Source of the DNA: an uncultured Ruminococcus sp.
GTDB taxonomy: Bacteria > Bacillota > Clostridia > Oscillospirales > Ruminococcaceae
DNA length: 64,000 nt
Direction of reading: 5' to 3'
Assembly: GCA_947345935.1 (NCBI GenBank)
Contig: CAMZZN010000001.1
Coordinates: forward strand, 47,049 to 111,048
Below the pieces are notes generated by a model that saw nothing but the letters and a program-made list of their open reading frames with translations, made no database searches and was not told where the DNA came from. Within the stretch, counting starts at the first letter, position 1. The number at the start of each line of letters is the position of its first letter. The translations under genes and the position numbers were made by a program. Below, one piece after another: positions 45,074 through 47,919 of the stretch.

Positions 45074-45966
45074 GTGATATGAAATCTGTTTATGGACAGG
45101 GCAAAGATAACTATATGCTCAAAATCAGATTAAAGTCAACAATACTCTTCATCTGGTTTGTTATCCTTACTATTATCTGTCTGCTTCCTATTTACGTGCT
45201 GCTTATCAATGCAACACGAAGCAACAATGATATTTCCGGTGGTTTTTCACTGATCCCCGGCGATTATTTTGCTACAAACTTTAAGAATATGCGTACTCTT
45301 GAATATGCTAAGAATGCATTCAAGCCTTTGATTGGTTACAGAAACAGTGCTATCATTACTTGCAGTGCTACAATTCTTACTGTATTCTTTTCAGCGCTTA
45401 CTTCTTACGGCATTCATGTATATGATTTTAAGCTTAAAGAAATTTCGTATACATTTATTCTTCTTATCATGATGGTTCCGACTCAAGTAACTTCTGCCGG
45501 TTTTGTTAACTTCATGATTAAAATTGGACTTCAGAATACATATATTCCGCTTATTGTTCCCGCTATTGCAGCGCCTGCGGTTATTTTCTTCATGAGGTCA
45601 TATCTGAAATCCTCGTTCCCCCTTGACATTGTTGAGGCTGCTCGTATCGACGGTTCGGGCGAGTTCAGAACATTCCTTACAATTGCTATTCCTATGATGA
45701 AGCCGGCTATTGCTGTTCAGGCAATCTTCGCTTTCGTTGCTAACTGGAATAACTTCTATACACCTTCTATGATCCTTCTTGATGGTGATAAGATGAAACA
45801 GACACTCCCGATGATGGTTCAGGCTGTTCAGTCATCTGATAAGTTTACCGACTTTGGTATTGTTTATACTTGTATTGCTCTTAGTATCATTCCGATTGTA
45901 ATTGCTTACGTTCTTCTTTCAAAGTGGATCGTTGGCGGTGTTGCTCTCGGCGGTGTAAAGGAATAA
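45070..45966 (+). CDS. Carbohydrate ABC transporter permease (MalG-like)
   Basis: EAARIDG, IPMMKPA, WNNF. No ATPase gene in the operon. Confidence 0.93.
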   Translation: MSDMKSVYGQGKDNYMLKIRLKSTILFIWFVILTIICLLPIYVLLINATRSNNDISGGFSLIPGDYFATNFKNMRTLEYAKNAFKPLIGYRNSAIITCSATILTVFFSALTSYGIHVYDFKLKEISYTFILLIMMVPTQVTSAGFVNFMIKIGLQNTYIPLIVPAIAAPAVIFFMRSYLKSSFPLDIVEAARIDGSGEFRTFLTIAIPMMKPAIAVQAIFAFVANWNNFYTPSMILLDGDKMKQTLPMMVQAVQSSDKFTDFGIVYTCIALSIIPIVIAYVLLSKWIVGGVALGGVKE

Positions 45967-45976
45967 TTTACGATTT

Positions 45977-46013
45977 AAAGTGCCTTCGGAGGTATTTCCG
46001 GAGGTACTTTTTT
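45977..46013 (+). terminator. Terminator of the ABC operon
   Basis: AAAGTGCCTTCGGA / TCCGGAGGTACTTT stem plus T tract. Confidence 0.85.
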
Positions 46014-46016
46014 CTA

Positions 46017-46045
46017 TTGACAAAAAACAAATTATGTGATATAAT
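46017..46045 (+). promoter_or_regulatory. Sigma-A promoter of TM1266-hydG
   Basis: TTGACA, 17 nt, TATAAT with extended TG (perfect consensus). Confidence 0.85.
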
Positions 46046-46051
46046 ATATAA

Positions 46052-46202
46052 GATATCTGGCAGTGGGATTTATTCCACTATCGGAGGGTCAAAATTAATA
46101 TTTGTTTTCGGGCAGCAGGATTTTATTTTGCTATCGGATCACAGACAATACGGCATTGAAATATGTTGATTCTGTCCGCCCGGAAAGGCGGATTTTTTAT
46201 TT
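46052..46202 (+). promoter_or_regulatory. Attenuator leader with tandem repeated hairpins and intrinsic terminator
   Basis: Hairpins at 46056-85 and 46108-38 share GGCAG...CTATCGGA; terminator TCCGCC-CGGAAA-GGCGGA-TTTTTT (46175-98) lies just before the RBS. Confidence 0.75.
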
Positions 46203-46211
46203 GGAGGGATA

Positions 46212-46460
46212 ATGGAAGATAAAAGGATAGCAGTTGCAGCCATAGTAATTGACGAAAATTTGGCTGCTTCTGAGGTGAACAGAGTACTGCATGAGTACAG
46301 TGATATTATCATCGGAAGAATGGGGATTCCATACAGGGATAGAGGAATTTGTCTGATATCTGTTGCTCTCGATGCACCCACCGATGTTATCAGCAGCCTT
46401 ACAGGACGTCTTGGCAGAATAAGCGGCGTTTCAGTAAAAGCCGCAATATCAAAGAAATGA
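46212..46460 (+). CDS. TM1266-family putative [FeFe]-hydrogenase system regulator
   Basis: 82 aa, VNRVLHEYSDIIIGRMGIP, ISSLTGRLGRI; directly upstream of hydG. Confidence 0.85.
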   Translation: MEDKRIAVAAIVIDENLAASEVNRVLHEYSDIIIGRMGIPYRDRGICLISVALDAPTDVISSLTGRLGRISGVSVKAAISKK

Positions 46461-46470
46461 GGAAAAAATA

Positions 46471-47919
46471 ATGTATGACGTTAAATCATTAAAAGCAGAG
46501 GAATTTATCAGTAACGAGGAAATTCTTGAAACTCTTGATTATGCTGAAAAAAATAAGCATAATCGCCAGCTGATCGAGGAGATACTTGAAAAAGCTGCAC
46601 CCAAAAAGACCGGCAGGGGAGTAGAGTGTGCTGGATTGTCACATCGGGAGGCAAGCGTTCTTCTTGCCTGCGATGTTCCGGAACTTAATGAAAAAATGTA
46701 TAGTCTTGCCCGTGAGATCAAGGAAGCTTTTTACGGAAACAGAATTGTTATGTTTGCACCTCTGTATCTTTCAAATTATTGTGTGAATCAGTGCGTTTAC
46801 TGTCCATATCATATGCAGAATAAAGAGATACCCAGAAAAAAACTAACTCAGGATGAGGTACGGAATGAAGTGGTCGCACTTCAGGATATGGGACATAAAC
46901 GTCTTGCAATTGAATCGGGAGAAGATCCAGTAAATAATCCTATTGAATATATTCTCGAATGTATTAACACGATTTACTCAATAAAGCATAAAAATGGTGC
47001 AATTAGACGTGTAAATGTCAATATTGCAGCTACAACTGTTGAAAATTACAAGAAGCTTCACGATGCAGGCATCGGCACGTATATTCTTTTTCAGGAAACA
47101 TATCACAAGGAAAGCTACGAAAAGCTTCATCCGGCAGGACCCAAGCATAATTACGCATATCATACCGAAGCTATGGACAGAGCTATGGAGGGCGGCATTG
47201 ATGATGTTGGTCTCGGCGTTCTTTTCGGTCTGGATATGTATAAGTACGAATTTGCCGGTCTGCTCATGCACGCAGAGCATCTTGAAGTTGTACACGGCGT
47301 AGGACCTCACACTATCAGCGTTCCACGTGTAAAGAGGGCGTCTGATATCGACCCGGATGTATTTGATAACAGCATTGACGATGATACGTTCGCAAAAATC
47401 ATTGCCTGTATCAGAATTGCTGTCCCCTATACCGGAATGATTATCTCTACACGTGAAAATGAGGAATGCCGTGACAGGGTTATTGGACTTGGTATTTCTC
47501 AGATTTCCGGAGGTTCGAGAACGTCGGTAGGCGGATATGCGGGATATTCGCCGGAAGAGCGCCCTCATGACACGGAGCAGTTCGATGTTTCAGATCAGCG
47601 CTCGCTTGACGAGGTTGTCAGGTGGCTGATTGATTTGGGCTATATTCCGTCATTCTGTACTGCCTGCTATCGTGAAGGCAGAACAGGCGACAGATTTATG
47701 TCCCTTTGCAAAGTCGGGCAGATCCAGAATTGCTGTCATCCCAACGCTCTTATGACGCTTCAGGAATTTCTTGAGGACTATGCTTCGCCTGAAACCAAGG
47801 TTGCCGGAGAGAAACTTATTGCACAGGAGATCAACAAGGTAACTAATCCGAAGGTTCTTGAGAGAGCTGTACAGAATCTGAAAGATATAAAAAATGGAGA
47901 GAGAGACTTCCGTTTCTGA
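46471..47919 (+). CDS. hydG: [FeFe]-hydrogenase H-cluster maturase HydG
   Basis: CVNQCVYC radical SAM motif, GPHTISVPR, and the auxiliary-cluster motif FCTACYR...IQNCCHPN that ThiH lacks. Confidence 0.9.
   Translation: MYDVKSLKAEEFISNEEILETLDYAEKNKHNRQLIEEILEKAAPKKTGRGVECAGLSHREASVLLACDVPELNEKMYSLAREIKEAFYGNRIVMFAPLYLSNYCVNQCVYCPYHMQNKEIPRKKLTQDEVRNEVVALQDMGHKRLAIESGEDPVNNPIEYILECINTIYSIKHKNGAIRRVNVNIAATTVENYKKLHDAGIGTYILFQETYHKESYEKLHPAGPKHNYAYHTEAMDRAMEGGIDDVGLGVLFGLDMYKYEFAGLLMHAEHLEVVHGVGPHTISVPRVKRASDIDPDVFDNSIDDDTFAKIIACIRIAVPYTGMIISTRENEECRDRVIGLGISQISGGSRTSVGGYAGYSPEERPHDTEQFDVSDQRSLDEVVRWLIDLGYIPSFCTACYREGRTGDRFMSLCKVGQIQNCCHPNALMTLQEFLEDYASPETKVAGEKLIAQEINKVTNPKVLERAVQNLKDIKNGERDFRF

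Follow-up and report, generated by a model that had tools for sequence, protein, structure and literature searches.

The DNA that we analysed is a 64-kb window of the genome of an uncultured Ruminococcus species, and the locus of interest within it is an operon that begins with a TM1266-family gene and continues with hydG, the product of which makes part of the [FeFe]-hydrogenase cofactor (Table 1). Ruminococcus species are major H2-producing, fibre-degrading bacteria of the rumen and gut, and for about twenty years the TM1266 family has been annotated only as putative regulators of the iron-only hydrogenase system. The operon is headed by a leader of approximately 160 nt, placed between the promoter and an intrinsic terminator, in which two hairpins, H1 and H2, are followed by the terminator and then by TM1266 and hydG; hairpins of another type, described below, occupy the same position in other lineages. 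Transcription probably starts near 46052, as judged from the position of the promoter, and equivalent promoters precede the twin-hairpin motif in relatives too. Refolding of the leader gave an MFE structure composed of H1, H2 and the terminator (z = -2.5), in agreement with the positions that the first-pass annotation had assigned to all three elements. The hydE and hydF genes of this genome are found on other contigs, where they directly follow other genes and have no such leader.

Table 1. Features of the TM1266-hydG leader and its surroundings, with positions in the window
Feature	Position	Strand	Description
Upstream ABC-transporter permease gene	3' end 45966		own strong terminator at 45977-46010
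Sigma-70 promoter	46017-46045	+	TTGACA-17 nt-TATAAT with TG extension; 12/12 consensus matches
Hairpin H1	46056-46085	+	UCUGG-C-AGUGGGA / UUUA / UUCCACU-A-UCGGA
A/U-rich linker, H1 to H2	46086-46103	+	
GUUUU preceding H2	46104-46108	+	86-96% conserved
Hairpin H2	46108-46138	+	proposed sensor and anti-antiterminator
Antiterminator (predicted alternative fold)	46105-46186	+	main pairing of 46105-13 UUUUCGGGC with 46178-86 GCCCGGAAA
Small variable hairpin in the expression platform	46151-46168	+	CGGCAU/AUGUUG; sequence not conserved, length of the region varies in relatives
Intrinsic terminator	stem 46174-46193	+	7-bp stem GUCCGCC/GGCGGAU, loop CGGAAA, then UUUUUUAUUU, to 46199
Shine-Dalgarno sequence	46203-08	+	GGAGGG, 5' of the TM1266-family gene
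TM1266-family gene	46212-46460	+	82 aa, stand-alone NikR-C/ACT-like domain; TIGR03959, 107.4 bits against a cut-off of 60.8
HydG gene	46471-47919	+	TIGR03955, 909 bits against a cut-off of 312

The frame common to H1 and H2 can be written as the pattern GGCAG..CTATCGGA, which occurs twice in the window against an expectation of 0. The 2.7-Mb genome to which the window belongs holds six further matches to a shorter pattern, and the one that was read (L006) lies inside a coding frame; the covariance model R1 finds one site only in this genome. For a first survey, TM1266 was searched in 60 related genomes and the DNA upstream of it was read. Leaders of the same genus keep the layout, and their upper stems change sequence yet still pair. 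When 13 leaders are aligned with MAFFT, 82% of the cells are paired and 14 of the 26 pairs show double changes, a number that none of 500 shuffles reached and that compares with 3 to 9 in slid controls; RNAalifold recovered the same two helices, H1 and H2, de novo. Applied to 162 Ruminococcus species genomes, a set that includes R. flavefaciens FD-1, R1 detects the motif in 126, almost always once in each. When 100 distinct leaders are considered, 82.6% of the cells pair and 23 of the 26 pairs are compensatory (12/13 in H1 and 11/13 in H2). The covariation score of these leaders is 0.427, compared to 0.222 after shuffling and at most 0.107 after sliding. A search of the 64-kb window with Rfam 15 returned no match at the gathering threshold, and at E <= 10 the region 45950-46260 gave chance-level matches only (14-20 bits against thresholds of 44-144); among 20 related loci a tRNA was the sole match. 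A search of the literature on the function of TM1266 or on a hydG leader found nothing. The leader also has no features of ANTAR, T-box or riboswitch classes, and its placement outside the known RNA classes, already proposed from the window, stands.

The two hairpins share a small module at the base of their stems. In the window, the lower stem of H1 consists of U-A, C-G, U.G, G-C and G-U, followed by a C.A mismatch and a covarying middle stem, and that of H2 consists of U-A, C-G, G.G (46110/46136), G-C, G-U, C.A (46113/46133) and A-U. The first-pass annotation was right to describe twin hairpins with the same frame, but it took the C.A mismatch for the shared feature and read the base of H2 as fully paired, overlooking that G46110 faces G46136. 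What is common to both hairpins is C-G, G.G, G-C and then R-Y, i.e. CGG opposite CGG. The G.G mismatch is found in H1 of 88 and in H2 of 82 of 99 leaders, the window's own H1 having U.G instead, whereas C.A is kept in H2 only (62/99) and the corresponding position of H1 is usually a normal pair. Spacing is also constrained: 20-22 nt separate the two CGG modules in 68 of 97 leaders, and H1 spans 28 nt in 79 of 98. The apex of H1, GGGA-UUUA-UUCC (46065-46076), which includes a G.U pair, is more than 90% conserved and nearly invariant, with UUUA as the loop in 81 of 98 leaders; the loop of H2 is 2-18 nt long and variable in sequence. In H2 the upper stem and loop vary and covary while the A-U pair next to C.A is invariant, so that the freely varying parts of the motif are the apex of H2 and the middle of H1. 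A conserved C-A-G follows H2 in the leader alignment. RNAalifold places an outer helix, P0, around H2 by pairing UGU(U) with the conserved RCA (46141-46144), which leaves a U-rich internal loop; P0 may be real but is unproven, its covariation being weak because the G-C pair is almost invariant. An IRE-like reading of the CAGUG in the window's H1 was considered and rejected, as these nucleotides lie in the stem and are not conserved.

Of 99 leaders, 96 have a terminator equivalent to that of the window 3' of the motif, and the distance from the motif to the U run is mostly 35-50 nt; in the window the run (U6) reaches approximately 46198. According to the computed folds, the terminator competes with an antiterminator that occupies its whole 5' arm and that requires an open H2 lower stem. 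Of the antiterminator pairings, those of GGA (46136-38) with UCC (46175-77) and of CAGA (46142-45) with UCUG (46171-74) had been recognised in the first-pass annotation and hold, but they are incomplete, the stronger pairing being that of UUUUCGGGC with GCCCGGAAA. An alternative register, CGGGCAG (46109-15) with CUGUCCG (46172-78), is perfect, and CUGUCCG equals the 3' strand of H2, CUAUCGG, except at the two mismatch positions. For a transcript truncated at the terminator loop the antiterminated MFE is -39.8/-41.6 kcal/mol compared to -35.9 kcal/mol when the H2 lower stem is enforced, i.e. the antiterminated nascent fold of the window is 4-6 kcal/mol better than the H2-closed fold. The full-length RNA at equilibrium prefers the terminator fold (-44.6 against -40.5 kcal/mol), and the ON state therefore depends on a kinetic argument.

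The same competition can be followed through the family. Upstream of the terminator loop, 28 of 94 leaders contain a perfect complement to the 7-mer CGGRCAG (shuffled 7-mers: 5.7%), and 66 of 94 contain one of at least 6/7 (shuffled: 47%); 46 of the latter sites overlap the terminator arm. Among the 66 partners, C or U stands opposite the G.G position in 64 and G stands opposite the C.A position in 48. The energy of the arm duplex is -8.8 kcal/mol, compared to -8.06 +/- 0.18 for cross-genome pairs, a modest permutation signal, and to -5.7 for shuffled arms. In folds of truncated transcripts the 5' arm of the terminator pairs mainly with H2 strands in only 51 of 96 leaders and with H1 strands in 20. 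The additional pairing of UUUU with the GAAA of the terminator loop, which gives the window a 9-bp antiterminator, was tried as a general rule and rejected, since most relatives pair CGGRCAG with CUGYCCG instead. By the computed folds the sensor hairpin, the antiterminator and the intrinsic terminator are mutually exclusive, and this arrangement is conserved across relatives. The folds point to H2 as a weak anti-antiterminator, such that anything clamping H2 should cause termination (OFF). The first-pass annotation had likewise proposed a cis-regulatory leader with terminator/antiterminator logic in which stabilisation of H2 favours termination, and both proposals agree with the near-universal terminator, the family-wide complementarity and the computed competition between the antiterminated fold and the H2 lower stem.

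We put the probability at roughly 85% that the leader is a real, well-conserved RNA family, outside Rfam and the literature that we searched, which acts as an OFF-type transcription attenuator. It adds to RNA biology a well-supported family absent from Rfam, with about 125 species-level examples and abundant covariation. The control of H-cluster assembly is essentially unexplained, and the leader is a concrete candidate for a device that regulates hydG in Ruminococcus.

The mechanism that we propose is factor-dependent transcription attenuation of the anti-antiterminator type, a design suggested by the computed competition between folds. RNA synthesis would begin near 46052, and H1 and H2 would fold first. 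The lower stem of H2 (CGGGCAG opposite CUAUCGG) would be weak by design because it holds the G.G and C.A mismatches. If the factor is absent (ON), the emerging segment would displace the 3' strand of H2 and pair with both strands of the opened lower stem, and the antiterminator would thereby take the 5' arm of the terminator and let RNA polymerase continue into TM1266 and hydG. If the factor is present (OFF), it would clamp the CGG/CGG modules of H1 and H2 together with the apex of H1, H2 would stay closed and the terminator at 46174-93 would form.

This scheme is close to PyrR attenuation in the Bacillus pyr operon, where a hairpin bound by protein serves as the anti-antiterminator, the antiterminator is the more stable default and binding leads to the terminator (OFF). 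In B. subtilis, pyrR is also the first gene of the operon that it regulates. We regard the leader as a new RNA family that uses a mechanism already known, namely attenuation of the PyrR/TRAP kind. The parts differ: PyrR has a PRTase fold and recognises one loop/bulge (ARUCCAGAGAGGYU), while here two G.G hairpins face a candidate protein of ACT/NikR-C fold, and the only hit of RF00515 (16.3 bits against a gathering threshold of 54) falls at 45950-46014, on the terminator of the upstream ABC-transporter. Targets of ANTAR proteins (EutV, NasR, AmiR) likewise consist of two tandem hairpins beside a terminator and are bound by a dimeric regulator. Their hexaloops carry A1 and G4, however, their second hairpin overlaps the 5' arm of the terminator and binding turns expression ON, whereas in the Ruminococcus leader the loops are UUUA or variable, conservation lies in the stem bases, the logic is OFF and there is no such overlap for H2. 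Known riboswitches with tandem units of similar structure are guanidine-II, which repeats a hairpin, and NAD+-I, which repeats a domain. Guanidine-II (mini-ykkC) resembles the leader in having two small similar hairpins, a variable linker and one sensor, but it has ACGR tetraloops and is usually translational, while our motif has other loops, conservation in the lower stem and no Rfam hit.

The genomic neighborhood of the motif in Ruminococcus points to the downstream gene. Every strong R1 hit stands at the head of a TM1266 operon. In 123 cases the hit is on the same contig and strand as TM1266; 89 of these hits lie immediately upstream of TM1266, and 34 have a gene for a lipase-like alpha/beta-hydrolase in between. 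TM1266 is present in 131 genomes, 124 with an R1 hit and seven without. In four of the seven, diverged twin hairpins can still be recognised by eye; in one a contig end interrupts the sequence, and in the remaining two (G084 and G154) the leader is truly absent. hydG was found in 145 Ruminococcus genomes. Where it occurs without TM1266, the upstream DNA was fetched for eleven genes; in eight of them hydG is preceded by a plain promoter and a short UTR that lacks both hairpins and a terminator. These comparisons lean towards a leader that accompanies TM1266 and not hydG, with two confounders. The leader and TM1266 are adjacent and can be removed in a single deletion, which weakens the evidence for the link, and the hydG genes without TM1266 fall in perhaps two or three clades and so represent few independent events.

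Several loci of this survey have features of their own. The intervening lipase-like gene of the 34 genomes encodes about 300 aa with the motifs HGMGF... and AHSKGG (e.g. at 452-1453 of L030, from G012), and L030 has two more genes, one pyridoxamine-phosphate-oxidase-like and one NUDIX, that separate TM1266 from hydG; given these variable insertions, the attenuator controls a variable gene set. In L168 (G084:C64) the last 250 nt or so before TM1266 contain, in place of the twin hairpins, a long and nearly perfect inverted repeat, TTGCTCCCCCAATTAAACTTTGCC ... GGCAAAGTTTAGTTGGGGGAGCAA, which may be a palindromic element that inserted there. L181 (G161:C3), one of the eleven upstream regions mentioned above, comes from a species that has lost TM1266; its hydG still has the promoter and an intact terminator, but of H1 only a remnant that lacks the CGG module. 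This leader may be a snapshot of decay following the loss of TM1266.

The twin-hairpin motif is essentially restricted to Ruminococcus. A search of 400 genomes from 179 genera of the order with R1 and with R2, a model of H2 alone, gave weak hits only, none of them beside TM1266 or hydG. A related single hairpin was found in only two of 72 non-Ruminococcus TM1266 loci (L194, 618-667, and L199, 1380-1429), in MAGs labelled Ruminococcus sp. SIG547 and uncultured Clostridium sp. It joins a lower stem of the H2 type (GUUUU, C-G, G.G, G-C, G-U, C.A) to an H1-like apex, GGAUUNNUUCU, and is followed by a terminator with a 5' arm complementary to CGGGC. These one-hairpin relatives suggest that the twin arose via duplication of a single recognition hairpin.

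Other lineages use a different hairpin, so a collection of TM1266 leaders, as suggested in the first-pass annotation, does not converge on a single motif. Before TM1266 in 33 of the 72 non-Ruminococcus loci stands a dyad hairpin with CUGA-N4-RAGG on both strands and a central helix that covaries (defined for this count as YYGA-N3-5-RARR on each strand of the same hairpin, at a distance of 14-34 nt). The dyad is found in 0 of 99 Ruminococcus leaders, and the R1 and R2 models give no hits in the CUGA-type loci. Many CUGA-type leaders are followed by terminator-like U runs. The two types share the order of promoter, hairpin, terminator, TM1266 and hyd genes, the same presumed OFF logic and a mismatch module that is presented twice. 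They differ in that the CUGA type consists of one hairpin that carries CCU-GA-NNN-AA-AGG on each strand and has purine-purine internal loops, while the Ruminococcus leader has two separate hairpins, each with C-G / G.G / G-C, plus the conserved apex. That a second, unrelated RNA architecture precedes the gene for this small protein in other phyla sharpens the protein-binding hypothesis. The CUGA-type lineages include Lachnospiraceae, Acutalibacteraceae, Loigolactobacillus rennini, Hydrogenedentota and Abditibacteriota. Single loci from very distant lineages in which we noted a CUGA-type leader together with TM1266 are L197 (Loigolactobacillus rennini DSM 20253), L220 (a Hydrogenedentota MAG), L249 (an Abditibacteriota MAG) and L263 (a Lentisphaeria MAG), a range that fits horizontal spread of a module made up of TM1266 and its leader.

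The protein encoded by the first gene is well defined by its fold. It matches PDB entry 2nzc (E 5e-13), the crystal of which has four chains, and its predicted model (pLDDT 94) reaches a TM score of 0.92 to 2nzc and 0.84 to the NikR C-domain. Fold searches rank 2nzc first, the C-terminal nickel-binding domains of NikR second and ACT domains third, and several of the matching NikR C-terminal crystal entries are tetrameric. It has no DNA-binding part, and its charge is near neutral. The description of TM1266 as a NikR-C/ACT-like domain without a DNA-binding part, which came from the translation of the window, is thus borne out. The fold search found no RNA-binding relative, the neighbours being regulatory domains that bind metals or amino acids, and to our knowledge no RNA-binding activity is known for TM1266.

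We nevertheless favour a TM1266 oligomer, made from the adjacent downstream gene and possibly holding a small ligand in its ACT/NikR-C-like fold, as the factor that binds the hairpins, at odds that we would place slightly below even. This choice is based on four properties of the leader: it carries two copies of a recognition module with local two-fold symmetry, its conserved elements sit on simple helices about one turn apart, it controls one operon only, and it accompanies TM1266 rather than hydG. That two similar sites would suit a multimeric binder had been proposed from the window, and the two-fold-symmetric C-G, G.G, G-C module of both hairpins, held in a fixed geometry, is a sign of such a binder, as are the four chains of the 2nzc crystal and the tetrameric NikR C-domains that share its fold. 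Against TM1266 stand the missing RNA-binding precedent, the near-neutral charge, the metal- and amino-acid-binding neighbours and the 34 genomes in which the lipase-like gene separates the leader from TM1266. If TM1266 is the factor, the attenuator would bring about negative autoregulation of TM1266 and control the dosage of HydG, and TM1266 would represent a new class of attenuation protein beside TRAP, PyrR and HutP.

A broader proposal, which we hold more tentatively than the binder itself, is that the TM1266 family as a whole consists of RNA-binding attenuation proteins built on the ACT/NikR-C fold and possibly gated by a ligand. Tetramers would clamp mismatch modules that are presented twice, the target in most lineages being one dyad hairpin (CUGA-N4-RAGG twice), replaced in Ruminococcus by two CGG/CGG G.G hairpins. 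If this is true, the CUGA dyad and the CGG/CGG twin offer two natural protein-RNA specificities with which recognition could be dissected. TM1266 proteins with both leader types have an invariant core of N23, L26, H27, I33, GRMG (35-38), P40, Y41, D54, L63, G65, G68 and K76. Residues 32 and 79 differ, being I/V32 and I79 with CGG-module leaders and mostly Y32 and Y79 with CUGA-type leaders; as residues of leader specificity they are suggestive only, because phylogeny confounds the comparison and L204 and L220 are exceptions.

The strongest rival to a TM1266 oligomer, which we consider unlikely, is a riboswitch for a small molecule or metal, in which the twin hairpins would form the aptamer and the ligand would close H2 and so cause termination. 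Perhaps the apex of H1 would dock on the U-rich internal loop of H2, or the two G.G modules would pack. The ligand would then be tied to the chemistry or supply of HydG; examples are a precursor or by-product of the H-cluster, 5'-deoxyadenosine, p-cresol, CO/CN, Fe and tyrosine. Highly conserved nucleotides that are unpaired or pair non-canonically, such as GUUUU, G.G, C.A, the UUUA loop and the G.U pair of the H1 apex, are typical of aptamers, but here the conserved elements are spaced by a helical turn along plain helices, the fold lacks multi-helix junctions and pseudoknots, covariation does not point to any tertiary contact, and the one-hairpin leaders L194 and L199 could not form a pocket between hairpins. 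Among Firmicutes riboswitches the most frequent design is an OFF switch that works through an intrinsic terminator, and as several RNA classes per ligand are common, a riboswitch could also account for the CUGA-type hairpin elsewhere; a single locus per genome and a distribution almost confined to one genus speak against it, as do the hydG genes of the same genus that would face the same metabolite without TM1266 and without the leader. Should the leader RNA bind a metabolite, hydrogenase maturation would gain its first dedicated riboswitch.

We give still less weight to another trans-acting factor, an RNA-binding protein or small RNA, which would bind the hairpins while TM1266 is a passenger that acts on HydG or HydF protein. 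The missing precedent for TM1266 as an RNA binder counts in its favour, and most relatives carry a palindromic box, TTAGTA-n-TACTAA, 5' of the -35, so that the operon presumably has at least one further regulator. A leader with one locus would nonetheless need a dedicated factor, TM1266 is the only gene that always accompanies it, and the pattern and R1 searches found no second target in the genome. Least probable is a leader without a sensor, in which a constitutive partial terminator and stabilising 5' hairpins, of a kind that commonly stabilises mRNAs in Firmicutes, would fix a low TM1266-hydG level or protect the 5' end of the mRNA: the full-length leader does prefer the terminator fold at equilibrium, but mismatches conserved against stability, a near-invariant apex and fixed spacing are hard to explain without a binding partner, and the antiterminator mirrors the H2 strand while repairing exactly the two mismatches.

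Two further observations concern the surroundings of the operon. The genome of the window has a second HydE-like match at C35:23382-24242 (minus strand, at a contig end), with 500 bits over model positions 53-339; it contains one in-frame TGA and is cut by the contig end, and may be a pseudogene, a duplicate or an assembly artefact. The palindromic DNA box of the relatives, TTAGTA-n(2-5)-TACTAA(CA), lies just 5' of the -35 of the TM1266 operon in 28 of 97 cases by the strict pattern, and in more when one change is allowed; in L040, L080, L088, L113, L122 and others it is approximately 48 nt upstream of the start of the motif. The box resembles an operator, and the DNA-binding regulator acting on it would add a second layer of control. 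In the window its place is taken by the 15-bp terminator hairpin of the sugar ABC-transporter operon, which stops 7 nt 5' of the -35 and thus leaves no space for such an operator, and the box occurs elsewhere in the same genome at C2:117418 and C24:19642.
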